Origin: Candidatus Moraniibacteriota bacterium
Lineage (GTDB): Bacteria > Patescibacteriota > Minisyncoccia > Moranbacterales > GWC2-37-73
DNA length: 64,000 nucleotides
Assembly (NCBI GenBank): GCA_035390125.1
Contig: DAOOTD010000002.1
Location: forward strand, 105,908 to 169,907
Direction of reading: 5' to 3'
The notes under the pieces were generated by a model. The model was not told the origin of the DNA, ran no database searches, and saw nothing but the letters and a program-made list of their open reading frames with translations. The number at the start of each line of letters is the position of its first letter. Position 1 is the first letter of the stretch. Shown here piece by piece: positions 5,447-52,275 of the stretch. The translations under genes and the position numbers were made by a program.

Positions 5447-5537
5447 TGGCGGAAGAGGTGAGATTCGAACTCACGAGAGCATTTCTGCTCCGCGGCTTTT
5501 CGAGAGCCGTGCCTTCAGCCAACTCGGCCACTCTTCC
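5447..5537 (-). tRNA. tRNA-Ser (anticodon CGA)
   Basis: Reverse complement reads GGAAGAG…GTTCGAATC…CTCTTCCGCCA. 7-bp acceptor stem, T-loop GTTCGAATC, anticodon stem CGGCT/AGCCG with loop CTCGAAA (anticodon CGA), long variable arm typical of Ser, encoded CCA. Confidence 0.85.
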
Positions 5538-5713
5538 TAATTTATTCGCTTTTTGAAATTTATTGCGGAGTATGCTTCTGGGGAAATAGCTTTCTCGCCA
5601 CATTTCAAATGCAGCTCATTGAGCTAATCCAGAAACTATGCCAGTTAGCGTATACATTTTGTCATTTTTTGTTTTTGTTGTAAACTATATATATAAAAAA
5701 AGATATAAAAAAT

Positions 5714-9397: not shown

Positions 9398-10087
9398 ATG
9401 GAATTATTGCACTCAAAAAATCTAACCAAAGGAACTTCCGGAGGAGGAAGTACCCAAAAATATGTCGACGTTGAAGAAGTCCGTGATGGGGTAGTTATAC
9501 TGAAAGATGGATCTATGCGCTCAGTACTTTTGGTTTCTTCAATTAATTTTGACTTAAAAGCTACAGAAGAACAAGATTCTATTATTAATCAATATCAAAA
9601 CTTTCTTAATTCACTAGATTTTCCAATTCAAATAGTGATAAGTTCGCGTAAACTGAATATTGCTCCTTATTTGGAATATCTTAAAAAAAAGGAAACACAA
9701 CTGACTAATGAATTGCTGATTTTACAGCTGGAAGAATATCGTAACTTCATAAAAAGCCTTACCGATGTTTCAAGTATAATGTCTAAATTCTTTTATGTGG
9801 TGGTGCCTTTCTACCCAGTTGAAAATGTTAAAACAAGTGTTTTTGACAGATTTTTCGGAGCTGCAAATACCCAGATGTCTGCTATGCGGAGAAGAGAACT
9901 TTTTGAAACTTACAAAAATCAGCTTTGGCAAAGAATAGAACATGTCAGTTCTGGTTTAAGCAGTACTGGCGTAAAAGCTGTTCCGCTTAAAACTGAAGAG
10001 CTTATAGAACTTTTGTATAATTCATATAATGCTACGACACATAATAATGCAATAATAAGAGATGTAGACAAGATTGAACTCAAATAA
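9398..10087 (+). CDS. VirB4/TraC-family ATPase, N-terminal domain (separate ORF)
   Basis: 229 aa; sequence (…VDVEEVRDGVVILKDGSMRSVLLVSSINFDLKATEEQDSIINQYQNFLNSL…) resembles the N-terminal domain of Gram-positive VirB4 homologues (TcpF/PrgJ type). Ends 72 nt before the ATPase ORF in a different frame. Confidence 0.5.
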   Translation: MELLHSKNLTKGTSGGGSTQKYVDVEEVRDGVVILKDGSMRSVLLVSSINFDLKATEEQDSIINQYQNFLNSLDFPIQIVISSRKLNIAPYLEYLKKKETQLTNELLILQLEEYRNFIKSLTDVSSIMSKFFYVVVPFYPVENVKTSVFDRFFGAANTQMSAMRRRELFETYKNQLWQRIEHVSSGLSSTGVKAVPLKTEELIELLYNSYNATTHNNAIIRDVDKIELK

Positions 10088-47166: not shown

Positions 47167-47343
47167 AAATACTTAAAGGACTTTTTCCTGGTTAATGATT
47201 TTTTAATTGATAATAGATGTCTCTTGGATTAATCCTACTTGTGGTAGGTTTTTTATTATGATTATTTTTTGTAATTTTTGTCTATTTATAGTACAATTAC
47301 ACTAAACTTGAACGGAATAGGAATATTTAAACAAAAAATAATT

Positions 47344-50300
47344 ATGGTAAAAGTTTCTGATAAACAATTAATTAGAGACAAGGAAAAAGAAACACAAACC
47401 GGGAAGCTTCTGAAAAAAATGAGTGGCCAGTCAGAAGAGGAAATCGCATCCCAGCTAGCTGCTGAATGTGGGCTTGCTTATGTCGATTTGAATATTTTTC
47501 CAGTGAGCTCAGATGACATGCGTTCTATTAGTGAAGAAGAATCAAGGAGGTACAAAATGATAGTTTTTCAGAAAGCTGGCAAAGAACACAGAATCGGGGT
47601 TGTCAATCCTACGAGTCAAGAAACCATATCTTTTATAGAAAAACTTAAAAATGAAAACGGATGGTTAATTCATTTGTATGTTATTTCGAATTCTTCTTTT
47701 AATAAAATATGGAAAAGATATGCTGCTATACCTTTTCTGGAAAACCTGGAATCAATGCAGATATCTCTCAGTGGCAAAGATTTAGATGATTTTGATAAAG
47801 AATTTGGAAATTTACTCGAATTAAAGAAACGTATAAATGAAATTCCCACTTCTCAGATAATTTCTATAATCATGGCAGGGTCCGTAAAGATGAAGGCAAG
47901 TGACATACATTTTGAACCGGGTGAACAAGAAGTACGTATGAGATTTCGCATAGATGGAGAACTTCAGGATATAGCTAGTTTTCCATTAGACACTTATCAT
48001 TTCATTTTGTCACGTATAAAAATGATGGGTAAAATGAAAATAAATGTACGTGATATTGCACAAGATGGCCATTTTTCTGTTGATATAGAAAATGGCAAAA
48101 TAAATGTAAGAACCAATATAATTCCCGGAAATCACGGAGAGTCAATAGTTATGCGTATTTTGAGTCAGGCTGACATAATGTTGGGAATTGAAGATTTGGG
48201 ATTGAGGGGATTAGCCTATGAACGGTTACAAAAGGAAGTTTCAAAACCGCATGGCATGATTTTAACAACAGGGCCTACTGGCAGTGGAAAGACTACGACC
48301 CTTTATGCTCTTGTTAATAAGCTCAACACCGCAGGAGTTAAAATTATAACAATCGAGGATCCAATTGAATATGAAGTTAAAAATATCTCTCAAACTCAGG
48401 TTGAAAAAGGAAGAAGCTATACTTTCGCAGAAGGGCTCAGAGCCATTGTACGTCAAGATCCAGACGTTATTTTAGTAGGTGAAATCCGTGATGATGAAAC
48501 AGCAGATATAGCTGTTAATGCAGCTTTAACCGGTCACCTTGTTCTTTCTACATTGCATACAAACAATGCCCCGGCATCAATACCAAGGTTTGTAGAGCTT
48601 GGTATAAAACCTAATTTAATATCACCTTCAGTGAATGCATTTATTGCGCAAAGGCTTGTACGCAAGCTTTGTCCACATTGCAGAGAAGAATATGCTCCGG
48701 CGCGTGAAACAATCGATTCTATTAAAAAGATTCTTTCTATAATTTCACCTAAGGCAAAAGTAGAAATACCAAAAACAGTTGAAAAACTATATCGTCCAGT
48801 CGGATGTTCTAAATGCCACAATATTGGATTTAAAGGACGCATTGGAATCTTCGAGATCTTAACGATAACCGAACCAATAGAAAAACTTATTTTGGAAATG
48901 GGTAGTGAAAGGGAAATAACACAGGCTGCGCTGGAAGATGGAATGATAACAATGGCGCAGGATGGAATTTTAAAAGCTATCGAAGGACTGACTTCCATGG
49001 AAGAGGTTTGGCATGCAACAGGCCAGACAGAATTTCTTGAAGAAATATATACAAAATTAATGGAGCAGTCGCTATCCAGGTCAGTTGAAATTCACGAAGA
49101 AGATCTGAAACTAGTTTCAGAAAACATGACCTCAATTGAATCTTTAGGTAAATTCTTACAAAACTCCAATCAAAAAGAAGTGGCTAATTATATTTTTGCT
49201 AGCAGTTTATTACTTAATGTTGGAGATATACACATAGAACCCGAAGAAAAAGTAGTAAAAATAAGATACAGAATGGACGGAATTTTGCAAACAATTGCAG
49301 AAATTCCAATTAACGAGTATCCCAGTTTGTTGGGAAATATAAAATTTTTAAGCGGATTCTCTTCTGAAATAAGGGGAGGAGTCATGGATAGTCGTTTTAC
49401 TATTGCATTAGAAAAACCATATAAAAATATAACTGAAACAAAAGTAGATGTTCGTGTATCAATAATACTTGGGGGGTATGGAGAGACAGTCGTTATGAGG
49501 CTTCTAAATAAATCATCTGTTGCTCTTGATTTAGAGAAACTCGGTATTCGCAAGCAAAACATGGAAAAAATAATTGAAGAGACGAGAAAACCAAACGGAA
49601 TATTTTTAAACACAGGGCCTACAGGATCCGGCAAGACCACGACACTTTATAGCATTATGAAGATTTTAAATAAACCTGAAGTGAAAATAATAAGCGTTGA
49701 AGATCCGATTGAATATCAGCTAGAAGGTATACTTCAAACTTCTGTTAATGATAATGAAGGATATACTTTTGGCACCGCTTTGCGCGCGCTTCTGCGTCAA
49801 AATCCCGACATTATGATGATTGGTGAAATTCGCGATGAAGAAACAGCCAATATAGCAGTTCAAGCTGCTCTGACTGGGCACTCTATCCTTTCTACTCTAC
49901 ATACAAATAATGCGGCTGGTTCTATACAACGTTTAATTAATATGGGAGTACGTAGTGATGATTTAGCAACAGCTGTCAATGCTTTGATGGCGCAAAGGCT
50001 TGTGCGTAAGCTTTGTGATTGCAAAACAAAAAGACAAATGACGGAAGAAGAAAAGAATAAAGTCAAAAAAATACTTCAGAACGTGTCTGACAAATCTGGA
50101 GTGGCTATTCCACCAATAGAAAGTGTTTATGAACCAAAAGGCTGTGATAAATGTAATGGCGTAGGATATAAAGGCAGAACAACAATAAGCGAGGTTTTTG
50201 TAATCGATCGAGACATAGAAGAATTGATTATGCAAAGCGCTTCCGCCACACAGCTTCAAGATAAAGCAGTGGAAAATGGAATGATAACAATGGAACAAGA

Positions 50301-50361
50301 TGGAATTTTAAAAGTTCTGGAAGGCGAAACAACTTTTGATGAAGTGGACAGGGTAGTATAG
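47344..50361 (+). CDS. Tandem-fused double GspE/PilB-family secretion ATPase (two complete ATPase units)
   Basis: Two successive units, each with a GspE N-terminal-like domain, Walker A (GPTGSGKTTTLY twice), Asp/His boxes, Walker B (…VGEIRDDETA… / …IGEIRDEETA…) and a CxxC…CxxC zinc module. ORF-track start 47278 is a TTG; the ATG at 47344 is preferred. Confidence 0.8.
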   Translation: MVKVSDKQLIRDKEKETQTGKLLKKMSGQSEEEIASQLAAECGLAYVDLNIFPVSSDDMRSISEEESRRYKMIVFQKAGKEHRIGVVNPTSQETISFIEKLKNENGWLIHLYVISNSSFNKIWKRYAAIPFLENLESMQISLSGKDLDDFDKEFGNLLELKKRINEIPTSQIISIIMAGSVKMKASDIHFEPGEQEVRMRFRIDGELQDIASFPLDTYHFILSRIKMMGKMKINVRDIAQDGHFSVDIENGKINVRTNIIPGNHGESIVMRILSQADIMLGIEDLGLRGLAYERLQKEVSKPHGMILTTGPTGSGKTTTLYALVNKLNTAGVKIITIEDPIEYEVKNISQTQVEKGRSYTFAEGLRAIVRQDPDVILVGEIRDDETADIAVNAALTGHLVLSTLHTNNAPASIPRFVELGIKPNLISPSVNAFIAQRLVRKLCPHCREEYAPARETIDSIKKILSIISPKAKVEIPKTVEKLYRPVGCSKCHNIGFKGRIGIFEILTITEPIEKLILEMGSEREITQAALEDGMITMAQDGILKAIEGLTSMEEVWHATGQTEFLEEIYTKLMEQSLSRSVEIHEEDLKLVSENMTSIESLGKFLQNSNQKEVANYIFASSLLLNVGDIHIEPEEKVVKIRYRMDGILQTIAEIPINEYPSLLGNIKFLSGFSSEIRGGVMDSRFTIALEKPYKNITETKVDVRVSIILGGYGETVVMRLLNKSSVALDLEKLGIRKQNMEKIIEETRKPNGIFLNTGPTGSGKTTTLYSIMKILNKPEVKIISVEDPIEYQLEGILQTSVNDNEGYTFGTALRALLRQNPDIMMIGEIRDEETANIAVQAALTGHSILSTLHTNNAAGSIQRLINMGVRSDDLATAVNALMAQRLVRKLCDCKTKRQMTEEEKNKVKKILQNVSDKSGVAIPPIESVYEPKGCDKCNGVGYKGRTTISEVFVIDRDIEELIMQSASATQLQDKAVENGMITMEQDGILKVLEGETTFDEVDRVV

Positions 50362-50433: not shown

Positions 50434-50507
50434 GGCAGGGATTTTTCAATCATCTGCCTTTTTTAAGCATAAAAGATTTAAGGCAGGGCGAATATCTCGC
50501 TCTGCCT
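50434..50507. terminator. Two hairpins between convergent genes (likely bidirectional terminators)
   Basis: GGCAG…CTGCC + TTTTTT (50434-50464) and AGGCAGGGCGA-atatc-TCGCTCTGCCT, an 11-bp stem with 1 mismatch (50481-50507). Confidence 0.4.
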
Positions 50508-50512
50508 TTGTT

Positions 50513-50833
50513 CTACTTGGTAGGTTCAGCCCAGGTTGGGTTAAATGATCCTCTCCGTTCGACAAATTGGATATATCCAGACTTGCCGATGGATTTTATG
50601 GTCATTGGAGATTTCTCTCCTTTGATATTTACTTTCATTCCGGGAGCCAGAGCTTTCTCCTTGACGGAAGAGAGTCTGAAATTTTCTCCTTTTTCTTTTC
50701 TCTCTCGGTCTATTTTCACGTCAATGATCCTCCTAATTGAGTTCATCTCCTTTCGACTCCGTTCTTTCTTAAAATCAAATCCGGGCATGAACTTCCGGAT
50801 TATATTTTTGTATCCCTCATTTGTAAATATCAT
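50513..50833 (-). CDS. Hypothetical basic protein
   Basis: 106 aa; very strong SD (AAGGGAGGGGGAG) upstream of the ATG; K/R-rich; no recognisable motif. Confidence 0.45.
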   Translation of the reverse strand: MIFTNEGYKNIIRKFMPGFDFKKERSRKEMNSIRRIIDVKIDRERKEKGENFRLSSVKEKALAPGMKVNIKGEKSPMTIKSIGKSGYIQFVERRGSFNPTWAEPTK

Positions 50834-50854
50834 TTTCTCCCCCTCCCTTGTTTT

Positions 50855-51027
50855 TTGTTTTTATTGATCTGTAGACAAGTCCCAAAAGACGGATCCTTCG
50901 GGGAAGGAACAGTGTCGAGGAACTCCGCAGCCGAAACCGCAAAGCCCATATCTTGGCAAAAAAGTTCCCAAATTGAGGACAAAAGATAGAAGCCCCCAAC
51001 TGCCTACAGGTCAATAAAAACAACAAG
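50855..51027. other. GC-rich ~125-bp core closed by a ~24-bp imperfect inverted repeat; candidate structured RNA leader or MITE-like insertion
   Basis: Left arm TTGTTTTTATTGATCTGTAGACAAG, right arm CTGCCTACAGGTCAATAAAAACAA (2 mismatches). Core has internal hairpins (TCCTT-cgggg-AAGGA) and is much more GC-rich than its surroundings. Confidence 0.35.
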
Positions 51028-51264
51028 AGATAAGTATTTTTTCGTTGATTTTAGAGTTTAGCACAGCTTTGTTTTTTTGTCAACTCCACGCTAAATTTTG
51101 TAATCATGGTATAATATTAACGGAAATGTCGAAAACTTGGTTTAGGGGTCAAGCCGTGCTAAAATAAACTTATAGAAAGCGAAAATTAGCGTAAAAGGCA
51201 ATAAGATAGCTTACTATAACTATACTATATAATACGCCAGAATAAGTGATTTTTTTCAAAATAT

Positions 51265-52275
51265 ATGATTACAACCTCAAATGAGCAGGAAGAGGACAAA
51301 AATTTAGATACGACACTTCGTCCACAGAGACTTTCGGAATATGTAGGACAACAGAAAATTCGCAAAAATCTGCAAATGTTCCTTGATGCTGCCAAGAAAA
51401 GAGGAGAACCAATCGAACATGTTTTATTATATGGACCAGCTGGGTTAGGAAAAACTACTTTGGCGCATATTATTGCCAATGAAATGGGAGTAAAAATAAG
51501 AGTAACATCTGGTCCTGCTATTGAAAAAGTAGGAGACTTAGGATCAATACTGACAAATTTACAGGATGGCGACGTTCTTTTCATTGATGAAATACACAGG
51601 TTAAATAAGCTTATCGAAGAAGTTCTTTATCCTGCTATGGAAGACTATAAGCTGGATGTGATTATTGGTAAGGGTCCTTCTGCCAGGACATTGCAGCTTG
51701 ATCTTCCAAAATTCACTCTTATCGGAGCAACAACTAAGCTTGGATCAATTTCGAATCCACTCCGAAACAGATTTGGAGCTATCCATCGCTTGGAATTTTA
51801 CGACGAAGATGAGATGAAGCAGATTATTAATCGTAGCGGAAAAATATTGGGTGTGAACATAGATGAAAGCGGTGCTAAAGAAATAGCTAAATCCAGCCGC
51901 CGGACGCCACGTGTAGGCAACAGGATGATAAAAAGAGTGCGTGACTTTGCCCAAATAAAAGATCATAAAATAATAGATTCAATTGTGGCAAGAAAGGCTT
52001 TAGCTATGATGGAAATAGATGAATTGGGTTTGGAACCGACCGACCGTCACATCTTAGAAACTATCATAAAAAAATTTAACGGTGGCCCGGTAGGCATACA
52101 AACAATTGCAGCGGCTACATCTGAAGAAATTGAAACTATAGAAGATGTTTATGAACCATTTTTAATCCAGCTAGGATTTTTAGCCCGTACGCCCAGAGGA
52201 AGGATAGCAACTAATCTGGCTTATGAACATTTAGGTTTTCCTATCCCAAAAGATAGTCAAGAAAAATTGCTTTAA
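51265..52275 (+). CDS. ruvB: Holliday junction branch-migration ATPase RuvB
   Basis: 336 aa; Walker [15 protein letters not shown], Walker [10 protein letters not shown], sensor motifs, C-terminal winged helix. Confidence 0.95.

Follow-up and report, generated by a model that had tools for sequence, protein, structure and literature searches.

A candidate structured small RNA gene between ruvB and a PilB-type gene in Moranbacteria

Several described bacterial RNAs can be set beside the one reported here. 6S RNA (ssrS; RF00013) is encoded by a stand-alone gene of ~150–200 nt with a strong sigma-70 promoter, present in single copy and conserved within clades, and our locus resembles it in these respects. 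The Weinberg/Breaker surveys have contributed orphan, lineage-specific small RNAs (sRNAs), among them Bacteroidales-1, Chloroflexi-1, Acido-Lenti-1 and the raiA motif, and SAM-I is a riboswitch aptamer built as a four-way junction closed by helix P1. Members of the CPR, or Patescibacteria, have genomes of ~1 Mb and very little is known about their regulation; to our knowledge, almost no non-coding RNAs have been described for them beyond the universal ones. Candidatus Moraniibacteriota, the source of the DNA studied here, corresponds to the Moranbacteria and belongs to the Parcubacteria group.

We analyzed a 64-kb stretch of a Moranbacteria genome (the window), in which an initial annotation had drawn attention to a GC-rich core enclosed by an inverted repeat and had offered several readings of it, including a small RNA gene, a structured 5' leader and a mobile insertion. 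We conclude with high confidence that the minus strand encodes a structured sRNA from an independent, conserved gene, and that the inverted repeat is helix P1 of this RNA. The structured RNA gene is roughly 180 nt long.

The inverted repeat and its fold

The element had been placed between ruvB and an open reading frame (ORF) led by a strong Shine-Dalgarno (SD) sequence, and this placement is correct, with ruvB starting at 51265 on the plus strand. The locus is laid out as follows.

47278–50361 (+): gene for a double T2SSE/PilB-type ATPase of 1027 aa, the convergent neighbor
50480–50508 (no strand assigned): terminator-like hairpin between the ORF and the PilB-type gene, from a terminator scan
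50513–50833 (−): ORF of 106 aa with its SD at 50837–50849 (AAGGGAGGGGGAG), lineage-specific and outside the conserved RNA family
50852–51026 (−): structured sRNA core, spanning both P1 strands and everything between them, as defined by covariance model R1 and covariation
51265–52275 (+): ruvB (RuvB), the divergent neighbor of the RNA

A repeat search found arms of 26 nt at 50852–50877 and 51001–51026, 88% complementary and 123 nt apart, and the 24-bp inverted repeat with two mismatches reported initially forms the inner part of this longer one. The G+C fraction of the core is 0.48–0.50 (100-nt windows, 50850–50999), compared with 0.28–0.36 in the flanks and a window mean of 0.355; the core is thus richer than its flanks, as had been claimed, and the wording "far above" was somewhat generous. 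Both strands fold better than their shuffled versions, the minus strand at −73.9 kcal/mol (z = −6.6) and the plus strand at −55.9 kcal/mol (z = −4.2). We assign the RNA to the minus strand because it contains conserved G-U pairs, which would become C-A mismatches on the plus strand, and because the window element reaches 178.7 bits (E 5e-58) against R1 on the minus strand, compared with 27 bits on the opposite one. Read in this direction, the RNA forms a four-way junction: P1 is the closing helix, and the other branches are the hairpin P2, the long arm P3-P3b-P4 and a second hairpin, P5.

51001–51026 (−): P1 5' strand, the right arm of the inverted repeat, its inner part CUGUAGGCAG highly conserved
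50973–50999 (−): hairpin P2, with an 8-bp stem (50992–50999 with 50973–50980) that includes a conserved G-U pair
50981–50991 (−): P2 loop of 11 nt, UUCUAUCUUUU, containing CUAUCUUUU
50906–50968 (−): long arm P3-P3b-P4, irregular, ~22 bp
50964–50968 with 50906–50910 (−): P3, added to the consensus by hand
50955–50958 with 50913–50916 (−): P3b, found later
50948–50954 (−): AAGAUAU, facing UC (50917–50918) in an asymmetric loop of the long arm
50919–50947 (−): hairpin P4, with a UUCG loop (50932–50935) and several conserved G-U pairs
50882–50901 (−): hairpin P5 (50895–50901 paired with 50882–50888)
50852–50877 (−): P1 3' strand, the left arm of the inverted repeat, pairing with 51001–51026 as the closing stem

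This fold is carried by covariation. RuvB was used to fetch 80 loci from GTDB species representatives, and alignment A2 comprises 24 sequences gathered through ruvB synteny, so that it is unbiased by any search pattern. The RNAalifold consensus on A2 had 42 pairs, 26 of them with compensatory changes; once P3 had been added, the structure comprised 47 pairs, with 93.9% of cells paired and changes on both sides in 30 of the 47. None of 500 shuffles reached any of these measures, and slid-partner controls paired at 43–48%. In a larger alignment of 84 distinct homologues (A4), 92.9% of cells pair (41–46% in slid controls) and 42 of the 56 tested pairs show compensatory changes. These are spread over every helix: P1 (15 of 17 pairs), P2 (6 of 8, with 99.8% of its stem paired), P3 (5 of 5), P3b (4 of 4), P4 (6 of 11) and P5 (6 of 6, with 94.3% of cells paired). 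The initial annotation had proposed such a comparison of homologous intergenic regions and had considered that the core might not be conserved at orthologous loci; it is conserved, and covaries, in 84 distinct homologues.

Some loops and junction segments are invariant or almost so. The metagenomic sequences had been pre-selected on motifs of the P2 loop and inner P1, and we therefore judged the invariance of those motifs on the 24 sequences gathered through ruvB synteny, in which CUAUCUUU of the P2 loop is invariant and the ninth position nearly so. The CCUCG 3' of P4 is likewise invariant in this alignment. The G-U pair of P2 is kept in 76 of 77 sequences. The P5 loop is GCUCCUAUG-like in most Moranbacteria and reads AUCCGU in this species. 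Insertions of variable length are confined to the tip of P4 and the 5' side of P3b. An additional stem read by eye in the core, TCCTT-cgggg-AAGGA (50894–50908), did not hold up: it is not conserved in the alignment, and the conserved hairpin at this place is P5. AUCUU of the P2 loop could also pair with AAGAU of J3/4, which 82% of cells in the 84-row alignment allow with no covariation, and this possible tertiary contact is a conjecture from the sequence.

The Rfam scan that had also been proposed was run with release 15. A gathering-level scan of the whole window assigned no family to the element, and three diverse queries (the window element, a Staskawiczbacteria member and a GC-rich Moranbacteria member) gave, at E ≤ 10, chance matches only, to a miRNA, an snoRNA, a coronavirus UTR and sok. 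The initial annotation's failure to match tmRNA, RNase P RNA, SRP RNA or riboswitches by eye is thus borne out: none of the first three has an Rfam match at E ≤ 10, and no known aptamer class matches in these scans. In the literature searched as full text we found no description of this RNA and no report of a 6S RNA in CPR bacteria, and large non-coding RNA discovery papers that we consulted mention neither ruvB nor these lineages. The sole gathering-level Rfam match in the 64 kb is a tRNA of 88 nt whose variable arm is long (5450–5537, minus strand).

Distribution, transcription and the adjoining 106-aa gene

In essentially all Moranbacteria-like loci (L014–L036 and L059), nhmmer finds the element divergently upstream of ruvB. 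Covariance model R1 finds diverged members in the same position and orientation, with E values of 1e-7 to 1e-12, in Staskawiczbacteria (L066, L083, L089), a Ryanbacteria genome (L045) and unclassified Patescibacteria (L042, L062). Of the parts of the RNA, the Staskawicz-type members lack only the P2 hairpin. A second model built from them (R2), aimed at additional CPR lineages, found no new members and gave weak partial matches to the P3-P4 arm of Moranbacteria only. A signature pattern spanning the P2 loop and inner P1 matches at least 120 metagenome contigs and no viral contigs, and 64 of the 80 metagenome contigs that we fetched contain the full or nearly full element, once per locus. In 55 distinct metagenomic loci, the RNA is flanked by a divergent ruvB and a convergent pilB wherever the contig reaches far enough.

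The closest view of its constraint comes from a related species with the same gene order (L008), in which the element is 89.6% identical at the nucleotide level, versus 72% for the ORF; the ruvB-side spacer cannot be aligned, and the two species hardly differ in a promoter-like block. Within the element, substitutions are few and compensatory, as in GGAAC/GUUCC to GCAAC/GUUGC and a U-A to A-U change in P4. Neither blastn nor the covariance model found a further copy in the 64 kb; the blastn check, raised initially with a MITE in mind, returned only the element itself and its own arms. Throughout Moranbacteria the RNA gene passes by vertical descent and is present as a single copy per locus, in the space between ruvB and the PilB-type gene, with diverged members in some other Parcubacteria.

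A distinct RNA candidate, ~130 nt long and of hairpin type, takes this place upstream of ruvB in two more CPR lineages, of which one is Kerfeldbacteria (L043:3700–3900 and L087:3690–3880, both on the minus strand). The two have the identical 13-mer CGACAAGCAUGGG in common and show compensatory changes in a long closing stem, and the L043 copy has a TTGACA promoter-like site. This candidate could be a positional analogue, or else a very distant relative.

Upstream of the RNA, a promoter scan and conservation agree on two elements.

51078–51083 (−): −35 hexamer TTGACA
51055–51063 (−): extended −10, TGcTAAACT, after a 17-nt spacer

Where a distinct homologue has 120 nt or more of upstream sequence, in all 79 cases, we find an exact TTGACA, a spacer of 16–18 nt and TGnTAnnnT; in an AT-rich genome, such conservation indicates a strong, constitutively used promoter. 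In L008 the −35 hexamer is kept while the surrounding spacer has diverged. From standard sigma-70 geometry, transcription from this near-consensus promoter (TTGACA-17-TGnTAAACT) would start near 51048. The −10 element usually ends 37–51 nt before the modelled P1, and some species have extra hairpins of their own in this interval (L008:2745–2800, L027:3712–3760 on the minus strand, and the equivalents in L028 and L029); L008 has a 34-nt insertion, UUAGCAUUUAAUGCUAA, after the promoter block, and L027 a GC-rich hairpin of 38 nt. The 5' leader of the primary transcript would thus vary among species, and the transcript may be processed.

At the other end, the stop codon of the convergent PilB-type gene lies 25–110 nt downstream of the RNA in most GTDB Moranbacteria. 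In Staskawiczbacteria a U-run directly follows the P1 3' strand, and the end of the covariance-model match, which takes in the U-tract and flank after P1, overlaps the stop codon of the convergent gene by 4–8 nt. Under a strict pattern, which required either a U-tract adjoining P1 or, no more than 90 nt away, a canonical hairpin with a U-tail, 48 of 82 loci qualified, and several more look terminator-like by eye. In most species, then, transcription would be expected to stop at P1 and its U-tract or at a hairpin terminator just after P1. The window copy has neither a U-tract nor a terminator hairpin after P1; the first terminator-like site reported outside the RNA and the ORF, downstream on the minus strand, is the hairpin at 50480–50508.

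We rejected the idea that the element is a simple bidirectional intrinsic terminator: its 123-nt interior is conserved with four covarying helices, and the window copy has no U-tract. P1 and its U-tract do seem to terminate the RNA in other lineages.

Between pilB and the ORF in the window (50436–50508) there are two back-to-back terminator-like hairpins, both containing AAGGCAGGG (50442–50450 and 50481–50489). The 1027-aa ATPase itself combines two tandem T2SSE (PilB/GspE-type) ATPase stretches with an MshEN domain, and its counterpart in relatives L020, L021, L024 and L025 is ~590 aa instead.

In about 20 lineages the RNA is followed by small SD-led ORFs, which for the most part are not related to one another. 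No gene downstream is conserved, and the RNA therefore does not serve as a leader for a conserved gene. The slot between the RNA and pilB has the look of a hotspot for new small genes, which would be expressed from the strong RNA promoter. ORFs in this slot occur in L097, L105, L109, L115, L118, L130, L131, L137, L142, L144, L145/L116, L148, L149, L152, L160, L163 and L108/L171, many of them with hydrophobic N-termini. Short tandem repeats with periods of 7–9 nt also lie just 3' of the RNA in many lineages (L141, at 5578–5621 and 9915–9957, and L131, L137, L172, L023, L144, L149, L163, L018, L108/L171, L162 and L122), with units such as CATGAAA, CACTGATT, CGCGGAT and TAAAGTC. The same heptamer array recurs elsewhere in the L141 locus, so these repeats may be a general intergenic class in these genomes.

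The 106-aa protein of the window falls into only two protein clusters in a database of 5.8 billion sequences, one from the same species, where it is called as 91 aa, and the other a 71%-identical orthologue. It has no significant family match in Pfam, PHROGs, NCBIfam or PADLOC (two chance-level PHROGs matches at E 0.13) and no relatives in the 55 distinct metagenomic loci. Compared with the L008 orthologue, dN/dS is 0.10 and the differences fall mostly at third codon positions (25/16/48 by position), with conservation from M1, and we therefore regard it as a real gene of 106 aa. Public calls start at M16; we place the start at M1 because the L008 protein is conserved from there and because the strong SD precedes it.

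Between P1 and the SD, neither this species nor L008 has a terminator, and their RNAs contain no promoter-like site; the ORF is therefore most likely expressed by read-through from the RNA promoter. Our proposal is that this species and its closest relative have lost the terminator, that the transcript probably continues into the ORF, and that the RNA here would double as the promoter and 5' region of the 106-aa gene. By position, the RNA is probably the 5' part of the ORF mRNA in this one species.

Function and alternative readings

A single copy, an invariant promoter, ~56 supported pairs, invariant loops and one locus throughout a lineage of phylum level, and outside it too, make this RNA a strong candidate for a core cellular function. 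Invariant promoter, single copy, vertical inheritance and constrained fold, in so small a genome, point to a core trans-acting RNA that is probably recognized by a protein. We consider it most likely, from sequence conservation and predicted fold, that the RNA is an abundant housekeeping RNA whose invariant loops and four-way junction would bind a protein. The gene neighborhood suggests no protein partner, and the invariant loops could equally be tertiary contacts.

The most specific candidate for such a function, proposed by analogy, is a 6S-like decoy for RNA polymerase. It is suggested by the long closing duplex, the central opening, the long irregular apical duplex and the strong constitutive promoter. 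The lack of a match to the 6S model, the stable P2 and the branching apical arm lead us to regard it as unlikely all the same.

We are similarly doubtful that the RNA is a trans-acting, base-pairing sRNA whose pyrimidine-rich loops, CUAUCUUUU in P2 and GCUCCUAUG (with CUCC) in P5, serve as seeds for purine-rich or Shine-Dalgarno targets. Across Moranbacteria these loops vary hardly or not at all, CUCC is the complement of GGAG, and a stand-alone gene with its own promoter and terminator is the typical layout of sRNAs. The 64-kb window shows, however, no enrichment of loop complements: AAAGATAG was counted 6 times (4.3 expected), and CATAGGAG with at most one mismatch 40 times (30.8 expected), a count that 7 of 100 shuffles reach. 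The Staskawicz-type members, moreover, lack the P2 hairpin and keep the rest of the RNA, and 56 covarying or conserved pairs in a four-way junction far exceed the structure that a seed-pairing sRNA usually requires.

An RNA that responds to a ligand or signal, with P1 doubling as a terminator and read-through running antisense to the PilB-type gene or into the downstream ORFs, seems improbable. In Staskawicz-type members, P1 and its U-tract are the only terminator and the covariance-model match overlaps the ATPase stop; the P1-closed four-way junction resembles aptamers such as SAM-I, and SD-led ORFs often occupy the downstream slot. However, a P1 of 17–26 bp is very stable and so unlikely to be conditional, many Moranbacteria have a second canonical terminator after P1, and no known aptamer class matches.

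The reading of the element as a 5' leader or riboswitch, favored in the initial annotation by its placement, did not survive the comparison with other genomes, and we now find it highly improbable that this is a cis-acting leader (riboswitch, thermometer or protein-binding) controlling the 106-aa gene. It is true that, here and in L008, only a few nucleotides separate the end of the RNA from a strong SD, with no terminator or separate promoter between, and that in the minimum free energy fold of the window the outermost extension of P1 (CUCUUG/CAAGGG) touches the first Gs of the SD. The 106-aa gene, however, occurs in two species only and the RNA in more than 80 distinct sequences; in most species a terminator and the convergent gene come next, and ORFs in this place, where present, are unrelated. 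No riboswitch family matches, and we saw no conserved alternative pairing that could act as an expression platform.

A mobile insertion with terminal inverted repeats, such as a MITE, has a negligible chance of being the correct reading: the one point in its favor is the 26-nt repeat around a compositionally distinct core, but the element is single-copy in the 64 kb and at each locus in 64 metagenome contigs, holds the same orthologous position next to ruvB in every species, has arms that change by compensatory substitutions as an RNA helix does (15 of the 17 P1 pairs) and flanks (...cccttg / gagata...) with no direct repeat or visible target-site duplication, and had no matches in viral contigs.

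The small RNA gene, which the initial annotation had listed among its options, is instead supported by the invariant promoter, the covarying structure and the terminators. As to what this gene does, the weight that is not taken up by the 6S-like, base-pairing and conditional-terminator readings goes to another protein or ribonucleoprotein (RNP) partner. A broader and more speculative view, which we offer tentatively as a possibility, is that this is an undescribed class of Parcubacteria housekeeping RNA, either a missing 6S-type regulator of RNA polymerase or an RNP subunit, with a promoter among the most conserved in the genome and a 3' flank that serves as a landing pad for lineage-specific genes. 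Jointly with that view, and just as tentatively, lineage-specific small genes, the 106-aa ORF included, may gain expression by read-through at this site.

Alignment A4 and covariance model R1 are ready for use by RNA biologists, and the partner hypothesis (RNA polymerase or another protein) can be tested. The locus may also illustrate how new small genes originate behind a highly expressed RNA, and the annotation of the neighboring orphan gene is corrected from 91 to 106 aa.

Comparison with known RNAs

In shape only, 6S RNA is one of the two closest analogues, the other being the orphan lineage-specific sRNAs. In its architecture, the RNA partly resembles 6S RNA in having a closing and an irregular apical duplex separated by an opened center, with a hairpin on the 3' strand of that center. 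The likeness is clearest in the Staskawicz-type members, whose consensus consists of a 22-bp P1, a 5' junction strand of 10 nt, a hairpin on the 3' junction strand, an irregular apical arm of ~22 bp with a 4-nt bulge, and a U-tail. It differs in that none of the three diverse members matches an Rfam 6S model even at E ≤ 10, and in that Moranbacteria have a true four-way junction, with a stable, covarying P2 hairpin and invariant loop where 6S RNA has its single-stranded template strand. Some members also have hairpin insertions of 10–130 nt in the middle of the apical arm, which would break the rod shape.

The four-way junction closed by P1 recalls SAM-I, as does the possible contact of the P2 loop with J3/4. 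Unlike SAM-I, the RNA has no conserved gene downstream and no Rfam match, and the pairing between the loop and J3/4 shows no covariation.

Bacteroidales-1, Chloroflexi-1, Acido-Lenti-1 and the raiA motif differ from our RNA in sequence and fold, with no Rfam 15 match between them and it, and unlike them it combines a CPR host with a rigid ruvB/RNA/pilB synteny and an invariant consensus promoter. In kind, however, the likeness is close: all are intergenic, independently transcribed, multi-helix RNAs, each belonging to one lineage and recognized by covariation. The RNA upstream of ruvB is thus a new family of a familiar kind, the bacterial structured sRNA.
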